Sequence record: NC_073069.1
DNA from: Escherichia phage B2
Length of the DNA stretch: 44,283 bases
Direction: 5' to 3' (one strand)
Below are positions 6,034 to 40,201 of this stretch, piece after piece; position 1 is the first letter of the stretch, and every line of letters starts with the position of its first letter. Made by a program: the position numbers and the translations under genes. The notes below the pieces were generated by a model. That model ran no database searches. It was given only the letters and a program-made list of their open reading frames with translations, and was not told the DNA's origin.

Positions 6034-6505
6034 GCAAAAAGATAGCTGGCGCACGCCGCCAGCTTTATTTAAACCGCTGCGCCGGAAGTACCGATTCCGT
6101 TATGACATGGCGGCAAGCGACGCCAACCATCTGCTACCGCGTTACTTCACGGCAGAGCACAGCGCGCTTGAGGTGGACTGGTCAGAGTTGAAAGGGTGGA
6201 AGTGGTGCAACCCGCCGTATTCCGATCCGCTGCCGTGGGTTAAGTGCGCAGCGCACGGACGCCGGACCGTCATGCTACTGAATCAGGACACGTCGACAAA
6301 GTGGGCGCGGTTGGCCCGGAAGACTGCAAACCTGATAATTCTTCTGGACTGGCGGATCCGATTTATACATGCCGTCACCGGTGAAGTCGGGCCGAGCAAT
6401 AACAAGTGCCAGCAATTGATAATCTTTGGCGAAGCGCCACCCATCGGCAGCGCACAAATTGAAATAATGAGCGAAGGAGAACTCCTTGAATATCTTAATC
6501 GTTGA
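6020..6505 (+). CDS. phage Dam-type DNA N6-adenine methyltransferase
   Basis: WRTPPALF near N-terminus, DMAASDANH, and catalytic NPPY (WCNPPYSD); characteristic small phage Dam family. Confidence 0.8.
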   Translation: MQKSEQKDSWRTPPALFKPLRRKYRFRYDMAASDANHLLPRYFTAEHSALEVDWSELKGWKWCNPPYSDPLPWVKCAAHGRRTVMLLNQDTSTKWARLARKTANLIILLDWRIRFIHAVTGEVGPSNNKCQQLIIFGEAPPIGSAQIEIMSEGELLEYLNR

Positions 6506-6710
6506 CCGCGACCCCGCGGTCGTAGACCAAATGCAAAGAGACTACTGTATTGATCCGCGACGCAATCGGGTAGTGCGCGCGTCTCGCCCCGAATACATCC
6601 TGGGCCTTGACCTCACCGGTTGGCTTGTCATGACTCAGCGTTGCCATTTCGTGTGCAACTCCTTTACTGCGCGAAGCGCCCGTTACACCCTTATTGAGAG
6701 TTTAAAATGA
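6486..6710 (+). CDS. hypothetical protein
   Basis: 74 aa ORF from a TTG start with strong aaggaga SD 6 nt upstream; overlaps the preceding gene end. Confidence 0.3.
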   Translation: MNILIVDRDPAVVDQMQRDYCIDPRRNRVVRASRPEYILGLDLTGWLVMTQRCHFVCNSFTARSARYTLIESLK

Positions 6711-7177
6711 AATTACTGATTTGCGATTTGGATGGCGTTATTAACGGTTCAAGCGATGCGCGTGCCGACTTGGTGCCTGGCATAAAAACTAAATCCACCT
6801 TTTGGGCGAAGTGGCACAAAGCGCACGTCCGCGAAGACCTGAACATGGATATGCTGCCGCTACTGCGCATGTATAAAGAGCAAGGCTTCGAGATCGCGTA
6901 TCTGACCAACCGGCAGCGAGAATGTTGGGACACCACCGCCGAGCAATTGGAGGTCTTCCCGGTAGGCCGGTTGTTTATGCGCCACATGTTGGACGACACC
7001 CCGCCGCCTGAGTTTAAAGCGTGCGCCGTGTTCAAAATGGTATGTTACGCGGACGTGTCTGAACTGGTCATCATTGAAGATTGCGAGAAGAACATCGCGG
7101 CAATTCGTCGGGCGTGTGGTGATTTGGTCCCGAAAATTTACGCAATAAACGTTGCAAAATTCACTTGCAACCAATAG
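6707..7177 (+). CDS. HAD-superfamily hydrolase-like protein (putative phosphatase/nucleotidase)
   Basis: ATGA overlap start; HAD motif I LLICDLDGVI, YLTNR and a later acidic motif IIEDCEKN. Confidence 0.5.
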   Translation: MKLLICDLDGVINGSSDARADLVPGIKTKSTFWAKWHKAHVREDLNMDMLPLLRMYKEQGFEIAYLTNRQRECWDTTAEQLEVFPVGRLFMRHMLDDTPPPEFKACAVFKMVCYADVSELVIIEDCEKNIAAIRRACGDLVPKIYAINVAKFTCNQ

Positions 7178-7196
7178 GTTGGTTGCACTATAGTAA
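7166..7196 (+). promoter_or_regulatory. perfect inverted repeat TGCAACCAA-tagg-TTGGTTGCA followed by TATAGT
   Basis: 9-bp arms at 7166-7174 and 7179-7187 spanning the stop of the HAD-like gene, upstream of the 7242 gene. Confidence 0.4.
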
Positions 7197-25585: not shown

Positions 25586-26287
25586 TTACTCGTCGCCCAT
25601 CTTAGCGATGATTTCACCGGCCTGTTTCGTTAAGTCAGTGATACCGAAGCTGTGGCCCATAGTGATTTTAGACTTCACATCCTCGACGACCTGCGTCGGT
25701 TTGCTCGGCGCACCACCGGCTGGCGTGCCTGCCAGGACGGATGCAAAATCGGCGTTATTACGGAACTCTTTTTCAAGCTCTTCCATAGTCAGCGCGGACG
25801 GTTTGCCATCCTGCAAGACACGCACCTTCAGGCTGCCGTCTTCGCCGTCTTCCAGCGTGAGGCGGTCCATAACGTGGCGTTGCATGATTCCGGCATTCTT
25901 ACCAAATAGCTTCGATGCCAGGTCTTTGGCAGCGCTGCCGATGGTTAGGTCGTGGATCTGCTTGCGATAGGCTTCGATTTTTCCCGATGTGTCTGCTTCG
26001 TGTTTCGCAAACTTATCTTTCCAGGACTTGTCGATCGCTTCGAGGTCGCCATTTTTGCGCGCGGCGGCTTCCTCTTTCTCTTTCGCAAGGCGCTCGGCTT
26101 CGGCGCGACGTTCGGCTTCTGCTTTCTTCTCGCTAACCAGCTTCGCGTTGTTGTCTTTCAGACCCTTGATCTCCGCCTGTACTTCTTCGGCGGTCATGAA
26201 CGTTGATTTGTACCCGTCACCATCGGCAACAAATAAAGCCTTCATGCCTTCCGGCAACGCGTCATATTCTGCTTTAGTAAGTTTCAT
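25586..26287 (-). CDS. scaffolding protein
   Basis: Start at ATG 26287 with aggggg SD; highly charged alpha-helical KAEAERRAEAERLAKEKEE segment; immediately upstream of the capsid gene. Confidence 0.55.
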   Translation of the reverse strand: MKLTKAEYDALPEGMKALFVADGDGYKSTFMTAEEVQAEIKGLKDNNAKLVSEKKAEAERRAEAERLAKEKEEAAARKNGDLEAIDKSWKDKFAKHEADTSGKIEAYRKQIHDLTIGSAAKDLASKLFGKNAGIMQRHVMDRLTLEDGEDGSLKVRVLQDGKPSALTMEELEKEFRNNADFASVLAGTPAGGAPSKPTQVVEDVKSKITMGHSFGITDLTKQAGEIIAKMGDE

Positions 26288-26390
26288 GCTATCCCCCTGG
26301 GATTGTGGCAAAGCGGGCCACCCGCTTGACTTCACGCCTTAATATTATCAGCGATAAAAATAATCGCAAAATTCGCTTGCATTGCGGATG

Positions 26391-26418
26391 TTGGTTGCAG
26401 TATATTGGTTGCACACCA
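26391..26418 (+). promoter_or_regulatory. tandem TTGGTTGCA motifs upstream of the + strand moron cassette
   Basis: ttggttgcagtatattggttgcacaccaaca; the 18-nt ATTGGTTGCACACCAACA also occurs upstream of the 37075 gene. Confidence 0.45.
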
Positions 26419-26441
26419 ACAGAGATATGAAGGAAGACAAA

Positions 26442-26756
26442 ATGGCTAACATGACCGTAGCAACTCCAGTAGACGCCGCAATGGCCCGTTTCAATAAAGC
26501 TACCGTAGCGAATACCTTTACCTTTCACGCAATGCGTAACGCGGAAGCGCTGAATCTGTGCCAGAGCATGAATGCATCTGAAGCGGCAAAAGCGGCGATC
26601 AACTCCGCGACATTCGATAATCCGGCTTGCGGCCTGGTCCCGGCATCTTTCATAAACGCGCTGGTCGAAGCCTTTAACGATTTCATGTGCGTCGATGCCG
26701 TTGAAGCGGTATGTGCTCGCTTAACTTCCACCGGCGGTAACATCAAATTCAACTAA
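26442..26756 (+). CDS. hypothetical protein (moron gene 1)
   Basis: gaaggaag SD then ATG 26442; about 105 aa, alanine-rich, no recognised motif. Confidence 0.45.
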   Translation: MANMTVATPVDAAMARFNKATVANTFTFHAMRNAEALNLCQSMNASEAAKAAINSATFDNPACGLVPASFINALVEAFNDFMCVDAVEAVCARLTSTGGNIKFN

Positions 26757-26795
26757 ACCAATCGGGGCGAAAGCCCCTAAAATTAGGACACAAAA

Positions 26796-27560
26796 ATGAG
26801 ACTGACGAAAGATATTAAAAATCAGATTCTGGCTAACATTCTGCGCGATCACGAAATCGCATCCGAAGCCAAACAAATCATGATGGACTCTCGCGACCTG
26901 GCGTACGCAATCACGCTGGACTGTATGCCGGACGGCATTCGCACATTCGCCGCGCTACGCGAGCATATCCTGCTAATCCGCGATGACCAGTCGCAGATGT
27001 ACGGCGTCAGCGTATACACCAACAAGGCGACGTATAGTTATAACTCCGACCGCCCGAAGGGTATCGGCAGCGTCTATAACGCCACCTTTGAAATCAACGC
27101 AGGCGGCAATGTTCGCACCTTGTCATTGAGCGGCGACGGTCGCCAACACCGCATACATCGCGGGTACTGGGAAGAGAAATATATGAATAAGCTCTCGCCT
27201 GATCTCGGCGATATCGTTCCGGGGTTCGAGACAGTTATGCTGGCTTCAGTGTGTGAAGTGGACGAGGACGGGAAAGCGCTGCCGATATATCTCCCTCGCG
27301 GTCGCGTAGACTACCCGGCAGATCATGATTTCTGCAAGCGCCTGGACCGCAACGACAAGGCACGTCGCGAGTTGCGCGCGAAGTATGACGCGTTCAAACT
27401 CACCGTTACCGGCTTGCTGGATATGCACAATACGGACAAGAAGCTGATTAAGGTATGGCCTAAAGTTGAGCAATTCATCCCGTACCCGGACAAGCCAAAA
27501 TCCACGGCGGTGGCGCTGGATGTGAAAACACTCAACGAGATTTGCGGCATTCCGCGCTAA
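26796..27560 (+). CDS. hypothetical protein (moron gene 2)
   Basis: 254 aa ORF, no recognised motif; followed by a bidirectional terminator. Confidence 0.5.
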   Translation: MRLTKDIKNQILANILRDHEIASEAKQIMMDSRDLAYAITLDCMPDGIRTFAALREHILLIRDDQSQMYGVSVYTNKATYSYNSDRPKGIGSVYNATFEINAGGNVRTLSLSGDGRQHRIHRGYWEEKYMNKLSPDLGDIVPGFETVMLASVCEVDEDGKALPIYLPRGRVDYPADHDFCKRLDRNDKARRELRAKYDAFKLTVTGLLDMHNTDKKLIKVWPKVEQFIPYPDKPKSTAVALDVKTLNEICGIPR

Positions 27561-27563
27561 CGA

Positions 27564-27585
27564 AAAGGGGCCATTACGGCCCCTT
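27564..27585. terminator. bidirectional intrinsic terminator
   Basis: aaggggcc-atta-cggcccctt hairpin with T-rich runs on both strands; overlaps the o-spanin stop codon. Confidence 0.6.
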
Positions 27586-27813
27586 AATTATTTGCTGCAA
27601 CTCCAGCACCTGCGCCCTTAGCTTCGCGCCGCATTCCATATTTTTCACGTCAATCATCAAATCTTCGTCGGGGTCTGCGGACGGGCTATCGAACTTGCAC
27701 GGCGGTCGCAGTGCCGACTCCGTTAGCGGCATCAACGGCACGTTGCTTGATCCGCACGCGCTCAGCATCAAAACTACAATCAGGGCGGTTAGGGCGCGTA
27801 ACATATTTAACAA
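27574..27813 (-). CDS. o-spanin (Rz1-like outer membrane lipoprotein)
   Basis: Signal peptide with lipobox LSAC, proline-rich short mature region; starts inside the i-spanin gene in another frame. Confidence 0.6.
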   Translation of the reverse strand: MLNMLRALTALIVVLMLSACGSSNVPLMPLTESALRPPCKFDSPSADPDEDLMIDVKNMECGAKLRAQVLELQQIIKGP

Positions 27814-28015
27814 CCTCTTTCGTGATAGTCCGGTATTCTACGTCGCGGGCCTGTTCGGCCTGCACGGAGCGCTCAACAACTTTAGTTTGCTGCCGTTGGG
27901 CTTGGGCTTGCGCTTCTTGCGCCGCCTCCGCCACTACGCCAGCGCGATAGGAGTCACCTAGCCAGAATCCTACCGCCAGACCGATAACCAGTCCAATCGC
28001 TGCATATTTAATCAC
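27686..28015 (-). CDS. i-spanin (Rz-like)
   Basis: N-terminal transmembrane helix IGLVIGLAVGFWLG followed by Q/A-rich coiled-coil-like segment. Confidence 0.55.
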   Translation of the reverse strand: MIKYAAIGLVIGLAVGFWLGDSYRAGVVAEAAQEAQAQAQRQQTKVVERSVQAEQARDVEYRTITKEVVKYVTRPNRPDCSFDAERVRIKQRAVDAANGVGTATAVQVR

Positions 28016-34257: not shown

Positions 34258-34749
34258 TTATGCTGCGTTACGTCCGATTTTCTCGGCAACGTCCCACTGC
34301 TTGCCATCGAATAGTGCTTGCCTGCCGATTGCGCGACGGACCAGACCTAAGAGCACCGATCCACCTTGCTTGCGGAACTGCGGCAGAATAGCACGGACCT
34401 TCGCCCAATCGCCCAGTCGCACCGCATCATCGAAATCGTTCGCGACGTCATCCGGCACGATCGGACCCGGACCGGCGTTGATTACCAGATCCACCAGCGC
34501 GTCGAATTGCGCCTGGTTAATGCTCGGATGTGCGTATTTGTTCACCCAGTCCTCGGCATACGCCACATCTCGCCTGAGCAGTTCCAGCGCTTCCGCACGG
34601 GTAATGCTTCGTGGCGGATTAGTGCCGGTGTGACCATAGCCCCAGGTGTACAGGCCGCGGGCCTGCTCTTTCTTGGTCGCGAAATACGGCACTGGGCTGA
34701 AAGTCTCCCATGCTGCCGTAAATCGTAGACCGTTGTCACTGAATCGCAT
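34258..34749 (-). CDS. endolysin (phage lysozyme-like, GH24-type)
   Basis: N-terminal catalytic region TAAWETFSPVPYF...GLYTWGYGHTG resembles phage lysozymes; adjacent to holin genes. Confidence 0.7.
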   Translation of the reverse strand: MRFSDNGLRFTAAWETFSPVPYFATKKEQARGLYTWGYGHTGTNPPRSITRAEALELLRRDVAYAEDWVNKYAHPSINQAQFDALVDLVINAGPGPIVPDDVANDFDDAVRLGDWAKVRAILPQFRKQGGSVLLGLVRRAIGRQALFDGKQWDVAEKIGRNAA

Positions 34750-34981
34750 GTTTTACCCCATTCAAAACAGCATTACGCAGGGTGCGCAATGCAAACAGCC
34801 AGATTAACGCGGTCCAGGTGGTATCAGATACGTCTCCTGTTTGCAGCAATCCGATAAAACAGACCATTGCCGTTAACAGATACAGCACCCGACCGAAAAT
34901 GCCATCCTGGACGGACGGCGCATACACGTTAAACAGGGACGAAGCCCCTATGATAACAAACAACAGGACGGAGATAATCAT
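34736..34981 (-). CDS. holin-like small membrane protein
   Basis: 81 aa with two hydrophobic helices; ATGA overlap with the upstream holin gene; overlaps the endolysin start. Confidence 0.5.
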   Translation of the reverse strand: MIISVLLFVIIGASSLFNVYAPSVQDGIFGRVLYLLTAMVCFIGLLQTGDVSDTTWTALIWLFALRTLRNAVLNGVKHAIQ

Positions 34982-35268
34982 TTTGCACCCCCCGGAAGTC
35001 GGAACGACGCAATAGTCTCCCTGATCCGGTCGGCGATTGGCATCCAGAAGATTGCGGTTACGAAGCCTAAACCGGCGACAGTGCGCTCACCCGACAAACC
35101 AGCCCACTCGGCAATAGCCGGTGCGCCAAATATGGCACACAGGAAGCCAACTACAACATACAAAACGAAGTTTAGCGGCCCCTTCGTAGCCTCACCATGA
35201 ATGCGTGCGCCTACGAAGCCACCCGCCAGACATGCCAGGGCGAATAGCCACTCGTTTAGCTTATCCAT
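34978..35268 (-). CDS. holin
   Basis: 96 aa with three predicted transmembrane segments and a charged C-terminus. Confidence 0.55.
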   Translation of the reverse strand: MDKLNEWLFALACLAGGFVGARIHGEATKGPLNFVLYVVVGFLCAIFGAPAIAEWAGLSGERTVAGLGFVTAIFWMPIADRIRETIASFRLPGGAK

Positions 35269-37498: not shown

Positions 37499-37614
37499 GG
37501 CAACCAATACGACCGACTAAAAGCACGCAAAATGGCAACCAATGCGCGCAGAATTTAATCATTTACCGATATGGGGATCCCCATAACGGCAACCAATGCA
37601 CGCAAAATTTAATC
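37499..37614. repeat. GGCAACCAAT direct repeats flanking a 16-bp perfect palindrome
   Basis: 30-bp repeats at 37531-37560 and 37585-37614 (27/30 identical), a third core copy at 37499-37508, palindrome tatggggatccccata at 37570-37585; overlaps the primase stop. Confidence 0.6.
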
Positions 37615-39871: not shown

Positions 39872-40201
39872 TTATTTGGAAGTTTTATTATTGCGTACCC
39901 AGGATCGCACTGTGCTCTGGTTGATTCCGGTTAGCTCGGCGATCATAGCCCATGATTTACCCTCATCACGTAAACGGATAACCTGTTTTTTGTATTCTTC
40001 CATTTCTTCATTGTGCTTTTGCAGCTTGCTTGCTGCCGTACCGTTGAGTAATTCCAGCTTCGCGCGCAATTCTTTTTCGGTAAGTCGCAGACGTTCGATT
40101 TCAAATAGCACCGCACCCACGGCATCGGTATATGCCCAGGACCGGCTTGTCTCACTGCAAACAGTCTTAGTTAACATTTCGATTGCGTCGTCGATATTCA
40201 T
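39872..40201 (-). CDS. small HTH-domain protein (putative regulator)
   Basis: 109 aa with ggaga SD; C-terminal HTH-like SWAMIAELTGINQSTVRSWV; first gene of the leftward block. Confidence 0.45.
   Translation of the reverse strand: MNIDDAIEMLTKTVCSETSRSWAYTDAVGAVLFEIERLRLTEKELRAKLELLNGTAASKLQKHNEEMEEYKKQVIRLRDEGKSWAMIAELTGINQSTVRSWVRNNKTSK

Follow-up and report, generated by a model that had tools for sequence, protein, structure and literature searches.

Two plus-strand genes, gp36 and nmad5 (gp37), interrupt the minus-strand head-gene cluster of Escherichia phage B2 (NC_073069.1; 44,283 nucleotides, the whole of which is called the window here), and they very probably constitute a self-contained accessory transcription unit located at a recombination hot spot in the Dhillonvirus head-gene cluster. 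The explanation that we favour, with a probability of roughly 0.45, is that of an early-type accessory unit encoding a dispensable, non-catalytic binding protein of the Nmad5 family. The unit is bounded on the left by a conserved divergent promoter region and on the right by a bidirectional terminator, with a slot directly behind the promoter into which different genes are swapped. A first-pass annotation made from the sequence alone had described the region as an opposite-strand two-gene moron inserted between the scaffold and spanin genes, and the open reading frames and their flanks indeed lie as it claimed:

25586..26287, minus strand: scaffold gene, left flank of the cassette
26442..26756, plus strand: gp36, 104 aa, with a homologue-supported ATG start
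26764..26777, between gp36 and nmad5: short G+C hairpin GGGGC-GAAA-GCCCC (-11.4 kcal/mol, z -3.0, plus strand)
26796..27560, plus strand: nmad5 (gp37), 254 aa, PF18757 and phrog_1965
27565..27585, both strands: bidirectional intrinsic terminator, common to the cassette (plus strand) and the spanin genes (minus strand)
27574-28015, minus strand: overlapping o-spanin and i-spanin genes (o-spanin from 27574, i-spanin 27686..28015), right flank of the cassette

The spanin genes are followed by head-morphogenesis and then portal genes; they are located within the head-gene cluster, ~6 kb from the holin/endolysin genes (34258-35268, minus strand).

Insertions are truly frequent at this locus, which is a hot spot for them, because presence/absence classes occur across the genus and because Klebsiella phage KLB16, a distant relative with a homologous scaffold gene, has no opposite-strand unit. 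A junction probe derived from a no-insert phage revealed distinct span classes across Dhillonvirus, and tblastn searches (at least 60% identity for Nmad5 and at least 90% for the scaffold protein) retrieved the scaffold gene in 157 Dhillonvirus records, nmad5 in ~148 and gp36 in ~59 (~40%). Six locus architectures were recognized among the representatives that we inspected:

nmad5 alone: Bas15, Gluttony and EE09
gp36 and nmad5: the window and SM_A8
a 53-aa gene and nmad5: EK99P-1
a 134- or 172-aa gene and nmad5: HK578, Zar3M and SM_W22
a 170-aa beta-clamp-domain-like gene and nmad5: EP23
the beta-clamp-like gene alone, without nmad5: SO-1 and TheodorHerzl

The slot ahead of nmad5 is therefore either empty or occupied by one of at least four unrelated genes; gp36 is the truly variable, moron-like part of the locus and nmad5 its nearly fixed part. 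Contrary to the first description, gp36 and nmad5 do not form a two-gene system, since most Dhillonviruses have nmad5 without gp36 and since gp36 occurs elsewhere without a nearby Nmad5, in Pantoea phage AAM37 and in Ackermannviridae, where it is found among early/replication genes. Neither was the locus undescribed, as had been supposed: the SO-1 occupant, gp07, is already annotated as 'possible moron gene product', and the nmad5 genes of SM_A8 and SM_S22 have been the subject of experiments (Yamashita et al., 2025; PMC11846954). The beta-clamp-like occupant (SO-1 gp07, L020 2716-3234; EP23p08, L013 1717-2229; TheodorHerzl gp07, L021 2216-2734) is annotated as 'RusA-like Holliday junction resolvase', a label that looks wrong from its sequence; the protein resembles, and only weakly, phage processivity factors and the beta clamp of DNA polymerase III in its central domain.

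Both cassette genes are real, as indicated by the ratio of nonsynonymous (dN) to synonymous (dS) substitution rates of nmad5 (dN/dS 0.11-0.20 among five phages) and by the existence of gp36 homologues that are 57-64% identical in unrelated phages. The open reading frame containing gp36 spans 26382..26756 on the plus strand, and we place the start of the gene at the ATG in 26442, preceded by a GAAGGA ribosome-binding site, and not at 26388, because all homologues begin at the corresponding MANM/MENM position (10 of 10 clusters, with proteins of 102-109 aa). The deposited GenBank start of gp36 (26388) falls inside the promoter/motif region described below. The GC content is ~0.47-0.51 in the gp36 segment and 0.53-0.59 in the flanks, and that of nmad5 (0.53-0.56) is no different from the flanks. 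The terminator at the end of the cassette, which had been predicted as bidirectional, is confirmed as such: the hairpin consists of an 8-bp G+C-rich stem with a U-rich tail on each strand, and its folding energy is -16.8 kcal/mol on the plus strand and -18.1 kcal/mol on the minus strand (z -3.2 and -2.8). The short hairpin at 26764..26777 belongs to a segment that is missing from Bas15, which has the no-insert architecture without gp36. We also considered whether the TTGGT...ACCAA palindrome could fold into a hairpin at the transcript's 5′ end, which proved to be unsupported (-1.6 kcal/mol, z +0.6).

We compared the window with the record of Escherichia phage CEC_Kaz_2018, a Dhillonvirus (NC_073070 / MK728541), and counted 4,030 substitutions, without any indel; the stretch 26401-27554, covering both cassette genes, is identical, and the terminator hairpin is kept although substitutions occur nearby. 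Many of the first differences between the two records have third-codon spacing, and the last codon of nmad5 encodes R in the window and in all examined relatives and C in NC_073070. GenBank records were used instead of the window for evolutionary comparisons where it mattered.

The gp36 protein belongs to phrog_24635, a family without assigned function, has three invariant cysteines (C63, C83 and C91) and no membrane segment, and is a soluble, probably helical protein. It has no match in Pfam, NCBIfam, PADLOC (at E values up to 1) or a PDB profile search; its structure model (predicted local distance difference test, pLDDT, of 54) is too poor to use, and BFVD returned only its homologue in a Pantoea phage.

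The region upstream of gp36 contains the following elements, of which the two promoters were read from the sequence:

26342..26369, minus strand: candidate divergent sigma-70-type promoter of the scaffold/major capsid genes, TTGCGA-16-TAATAT
26377..26406, plus strand: candidate cassette promoter, with TTGCAT at 26377-26382, an 18-nt spacer and TATATT at 26401-26406
26391..26399, plus strand: TTGGTTGCA copy 1, in the promoter spacer beside the -10 element
26405..26413, plus strand: TTGGTTGCA copy 2, which overlaps both the -10 element and the probable start site

The tandem TTGGTTGCA motifs ahead of the cassette had been noticed in the first pass, and they are present at these positions; the second copy is part of a 21-mer, TATATTGGTTGCACACCAACA, that is also found ahead of gp55. 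The cassette promoter is a weak match to the consensus, and we infer it from its conservation and not from its score. A block of the form TAATATTATCAGCGATAAAAATAATCGCAAAATTCGCTTGCA(A/T)-N8-TTGGTTGCA-N-TATATTGGTTGCACACCAACA is nearly invariant upstream of the first gene of the unit, whichever gene occupies the slot, and is kept in the window, Bas15, SO-1, SM_W22, LM40P1, EP23, TheodorHerzl and EK99P-1, the spacing of the two TTGGTTGCA copies being identical in each of the eight phages. This block is more conserved than the adjoining coding sequence, and the minus-strand candidate promoter lies in a stretch that is nearly invariant across four slot architectures. A palindrome, TTATC-AGC-GATAA (26345-26357), lies in the spacer of that minus-strand candidate, within the invariant part.

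TTGGTTGCA is a real recurrent motif, since an exact match is found 11 times in the window, compared with 0.31 +/- 0.56 times in shuffled sequences, none of 100 shuffles reaching 11, and it is not specific to the cassette:

exact copies: 5489, 5506, 7166 (minus strand), 7179, 10283, 26391, 26405, 34000, 36565, 37097 (minus strand) and 40391 (minus strand)
copies with one mismatch: 34023, 37128 (minus strand), 37220, 37499-37588 (minus strand), 43196 (minus strand) and 43212 (minus strand)

The copies are often paired as direct repeats, and half of the sites of the 8-mer lie in intergenic DNA, which represents 5% of the genome. [quoted passage not shown] The motif looks like the operator of a phage regulator, because it is carried in the spacer of the strong gp60 promoter (TTGACA-18-TATTAT) and because two copies at gp12 form a palindrome, GCAACCAA-TAGG-TTGGTTGC (7166-7187). 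L015, a related phage from metagenomic data, also carries the 8-mer TTGGTTGC, among other places upstream of its SSB gene. A candidate for the regulator that binds the motif is gp59 (109 aa; 39872-40201, minus strand), whose C-terminus matches sigma-70 region 4/homeodomain-like helix-turn-helix (HTH) domains (E values of 2e-6 to 5e-7) and whose gene and the replication operon are transcribed divergently from either side of a motif copy. Since the cassette promoter appears to share its motif with promoters of replication and early genes, and since relatives carry Nmad5 in a replication operon (see below), the cassette probably follows the regulation of the replication and early genes, as opposed to that of the late head genes that surround it.

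The first-pass annotation had found no assignable motif in either protein, but the 254-aa protein is a full-length member of the Pfam family Nmad5 (PF18757; E value of 1.2e-57, 195.8 bits for a cut-off of 27, model positions 1-206 of 206) and of phrog_1965 (E value of 6e-60). An exhaustive profile search recovered ~840 Nmad5 clusters at 50% identity, nearly all of them stand-alone proteins of 180-250 aa; none of 81 diverse members scanned against Pfam has a second domain, and no second family is recurrently associated with them. Residues conserved among 137 diverse members are R2, L3, T4, I7, I11, G104, G113, T213, L217, W221, P222, E223, P229, L246, N247, G251 and P253, mostly hydrophobic, glycine or proline, which gives a signature composed of an N-terminal M-R-L-T and a C-terminal T-x3-L-x3-W-P-E ... 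L-N-x3-G-[LI]-P. The family is thus conserved at its extreme N- and C-termini and variable in the middle, and the protein of the window carries all signature residues except E223, replaced by K. Its AlphaFold2 (AF2) model is helical (pLDDT of 70), with confident regions at residues 1-62 and 178-227. Structure and profile searches detected no enzyme fold and no solved relative, while NCBIfam and PADLOC (at E values up to 1) returned nothing; the protein has no membrane segments. The possibility that gp60 is a diverged copy of Nmad5 was also explored and rejected (hhalign probability of 0.2%).

We inspected by hand ~13 Nmad5 contexts outside Dhillonvirus, family membership being confirmed by Pfam. 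In two metagenomic relatives of Hungariovirus (L014 and L015), minus-strand genes for an AAA_25 helicase and an HTH protein adjoin a series composed of a gp60 homologue, Nmad5, two small genes, a DUF2800 nuclease gene, a small gene, an Enc34 SSB gene, a small gene and PolA. The window has the same module order without Nmad5, i.e., AAA_25 and HTH genes on the minus strand, then gp60, two small genes, DUF2800, a small gene, SSB and PolA. In phage mEp235 (gp37; L002 3695-4318) and in Stx phages, the Nmad5 gene, named 'Nmad5 family putative nucleotide modification protein' in RefSeq, is the first one after N or Nun and precedes cIII-kil-gam; this lambdoid gene is present in prophages of 211 of the 5,426 complete E. 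coli genomes. Vibrio phage P23 has a lone opposite-strand Nmad5 gene in its head module (L026 3063-3692), between a head-completion gene and genes adjoining the capsid gene, Vibrio phage 1.017.O has one between tape-measure and baseplate genes (L010 4557-5276), and in Bas95 and Vibrio D285 it is included in arrays of small early genes. The common denominator of these contexts is a mobile, early or accessory gene and not a modification pathway: modification genes are not found next to nmad5 in the window, where its neighbours are scaffold and spanin genes, and they are missing in the lambdoid, Vibrio and Hungariovirus-like phages too. The assignment to Nmad5 stands without such neighbours, because the neighbourhood is a contextual feature and not part of the sequence definition of the family.

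The same contexts bear on the idea that both genes encode head-assembly or virion components that happen to be written on the other strand. Their position between the scaffold gene and the spanin, head-morphogenesis and portal genes is all that suggests it, and we consider it very improbable. The nmad5 gene can be deleted (PMC11846954) and is absent from SO-1 and TheodorHerzl, many phages lack gp36, homologues of both proteins are found in early/replication regions elsewhere, and the promoter carries a motif of non-structural genes. Moreover, proteomics of an EE09 lysate, in which 24 phage proteins were identified, detected the flanking proteins and none from the genes between them.

What is known of nmad5 experimentally comes from the work of Yamashita et al. 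(2025, Commun Biol; PMC11846954) on SM_A8 and SM_S22, in which the gene is described as 'located near the capsid gene'. A single substitution, K216E (K296E in the longer SM_S22 annotation), allows these phages to escape the KAP-NTPase defence Tmn, and reversion restores sensitivity, whereas deletion of nmad5 is tolerated and gives no escape; the gene could not be cloned and is apparently toxic (PMC11846954). The locus is orthologous to that of the window: SM_A8 has a 104-aa gene followed by a 254-aa Nmad5 gene between its scaffold and spanin genes, and its Nmad5 protein is 85% identical to ours in a gapless alignment, so that K216 corresponds and is present in the protein of the window. In contrast, the window protein has T23S, V207L, A220V and E223K, and the view of Nmad5 as a DNA-modification enzyme taken in that paper is unsupported here. 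These data partly sustain the host-directed or anti-defence role suggested in the first pass, inasmuch as nmad5 is dispensable and interacts genetically with Tmn (PMC11846954). Superinfection exclusion, which had been suggested along with it, is unlikely, because descriptions of the phage group present it as lytic and because neither protein has a membrane segment.

Alternatively, Nmad5 could be primarily a dedicated anti-defence protein that directly inhibits some immune system of the host, perhaps other variants of the Tmn KAP NTPase, with K216E retargeting or broadening its action and the slot genes being anti-defence genes as well. A point mutation that escapes Tmn where deletion does not would fit a gain of function by an inhibitor, and the known anti-Tmn proteins have allele-specific spectra (PMC11846954). 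The dispensability of nmad5, its fast-evolving middle and alleles that are old relative to the flanks point in the same direction, as do the lambdoid homologue in the accessory region after N, the moron-like positions elsewhere, the adjoining hot-spot slot and the clustering of private substitutions around K216. However, such a role for wild-type Nmad5 is deduced here from mutant genetics, and both wild-type SM_A8 and an anti-Tmn deletion mutant of SM_S22 carry nmad5 and are nevertheless sensitive to Tmn (PMC11846954). Toxicity upon cloning would be unusual for a pure inhibitor, the termini of Nmad5 are conserved across phages of Proteobacteria whose hosts have different immune repertoires, and in relatives the gene is embedded in replication operons. 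We therefore regard a dedicated anti-defence function as somewhat unlikely. The cassette does not correspond to a known Dhillonvirus inhibitor or trigger of defence either: anti-Tmn is ORF35 of SM_S22, at another locus (PMC11846954), and the KpAvs2 trigger Ksap1 has 74 aa and is encoded between methyltransferase and phosphatase genes, again at another locus. The window has a gene, gp10 (6486-6710, plus strand; 74 aa), flanked by gp09, a methyltransferase gene of the Dam family, and gp11, a phosphatase-like gene of HAD type; its position and size match those published for Ksap1, the Dhillonvirus activator of the Klebsiella Avs2 defence. The main text of an escape-mutant survey that used SECphi Dhillonviruses does not mention the nmad5 locus.

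The evolution of nmad5 is distinct from that of its neighbours. When identical genome pairs are compared, the dN of nmad5 amounts to 10-40 times, and its dS to 3-4 times, the value in the adjacent scaffold gene, so that the alleles of nmad5 are older than their flanks and have been exchanged among lineages. The variation among Dhillonvirus clusters is concentrated in residues 20-175, and the region from ~205 to the C-terminus varies little. The allele common to CEC_Kaz_2018 and the window has four private substitutions, T23S, V207L, A220V and E223K, the last three of which bracket K216 (nmad5 codons 207-223, positions 27414-27464). Residue 223 is acidic (E or D) in 131 of the 137 representatives of the family, and every other Dhillonvirus cluster that was examined has E.

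We propose that the promoter region is controlled by a phage regulator acting on TTGGTTGCA, so that the cassette would be expressed together with the DNA-replication genes. Nmad5 would be an early protein, dispensable and toxic to the host, in which the conserved N- and C-terminal regions make up a helical core while the middle evolves fast, and it would bind a host or phage partner through the conserved C-terminal block T213-P229. This interaction would touch what Tmn senses, and a neomorphic K216E protein would block sensing in a way that loss of the protein could not; the model thus accounts for the fact that the charge change escapes Tmn while deletion does not. This binding mechanism is tentative, and we put it forward as a possible explanation. 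A bolder version, in which Nmad5 is misnamed and is a widespread mobile early protein whose T213-P229 helix-turn block is a contact surface between phage and immunity, V207L/A220V/E223K a natural Tmn-escape allele, and the slot a landing pad for interchangeable replication- or immunity-directed genes, seems unlikely to us at this stage.

Several points weigh against a non-catalytic protein in an early-type unit. The phages YuA, M6, SN1 and Bordetella MW2 carry Nmad5 within genes for thymidine hypermodification, the context from which the family takes its name. In the AF2 model, the middle third has a pLDDT below 50 and could hide a small catalytic fold, and the conserved polar residues R2, T213, E223 and N247 could make an active site. 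The strict sigma-70 consensus scan of the cassette region called no promoter, either candidate falling below the threshold, so that of the 'moron with its own promoter and terminator' the insertion variability and the terminator are borne out, and the promoter corresponds to a block that is conserved but uncalled. The proposed regulator gp59 is not homologous to the HTH protein found at the same position in L015; as a shared motif-binding regulator it is thus rejected, and it remains a candidate in the window. Early timing is deduced from the sharing of the motif, a copy of which is also present close to gp44, immediately upstream of the terminase genes. Finally, DNA modification is the interpretation preferred in the Tmn study itself (PMC11846954).

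According to this last reading, Nmad5 would be a DNA- or nucleotide-modification enzyme, or an essential cofactor of one, and Tmn would sense modified DNA. The Pfam name agrees with it, as do the aGPT-Pplase, nucleotide kinase and dUMP hydroxymethylase genes that neighbour Nmad5 in YuA, M6, SN1 and Bordetella MW2 and the N6/N4 methyltransferase gene located two genes from Nmad5 in L017; in addition, the phage of the window encodes a Dam-like methyltransferase and an annotated cytosine methyltransferase, the latter without a Pfam match. We consider it improbable, and Nmad5 is most likely not a DNA-modifying enzyme here, because it has no detectable catalytic fold and few conserved polar residues, because few of its contexts contain modification genes (none in lambdoid, Dhillonvirus, Vibrio or Hungariovirus-like phages), because its deletion leaves Tmn sensitivity unchanged, which is hard to reconcile with Tmn sensing a modification made by Nmad5, and because Dhillonviruses have been reported to be sensitive to restriction-modification systems compared with Queuovirinae (PMC8594841). 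The near-invariant E223 being K in the phage of the window is a further argument against catalysis.

The cassette belongs to a known kind of locus. The Nmad5 proteins of M6, YuA, SN1 and MW2 belong to the same single-domain family (E values of 1e-51 to 1e-57) and have the same N- and C-terminal signature, but the gene of the window lacks their modification neighbours and encodes ~50 extra residues in the variable middle. Those of the Hungariovirus-like phages C130_2, L014 and L015 are 25-29% identical over their full length and share with the window a syntenic replication module and the TTGGTTGC motif; they are encoded inside the early operon, whereas the Dhillonvirus gene is found 13 kb away, among the head genes, with a candidate promoter and a terminator of its own. 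Classical morons, as defined by Hendrix and colleagues, are expressed from prophages and benefit the lysogen. Lambdoid morons and SO-1 gp07 are likewise extra units between genes that are adjacent in relatives, with promoter-like and terminator elements and variable content. Unlike classical morons, the cassette has a promoter that appears to belong to the phage's own regulon, its nmad5 gene is nearly fixed in the genus, and Dhillonviruses are called lytic in published descriptions. The accessory genes located after N in the lambdoid pL operon include Ral, gene 17 of P22 and SieB, and this site is typical of dispensable host-interaction genes; the resemblance of the lambdoid Nmad5 gene to them is positional, with no sequence relationship. 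The interest of the locus that remains lies in its Tmn genetics, the natural E223K allele, the recurrent regulatory motif and our judgement that the family name is misleading.

Phages of the genus Dhillonvirus are often considered for the therapy and biocontrol of E. coli, and only two ways in which they get around Tmn are known, the nmad5 locus being one. If our explanation is correct, the label 'DNA modification enzyme' would be unsupported, which would redirect work on what Tmn senses, and the position ahead of nmad5, which would naturally accept foreign genes, could serve as an engineering site for payload genes. It would also mean that nmad5, although located among the head genes, is wired to the replication regulon of these phages.

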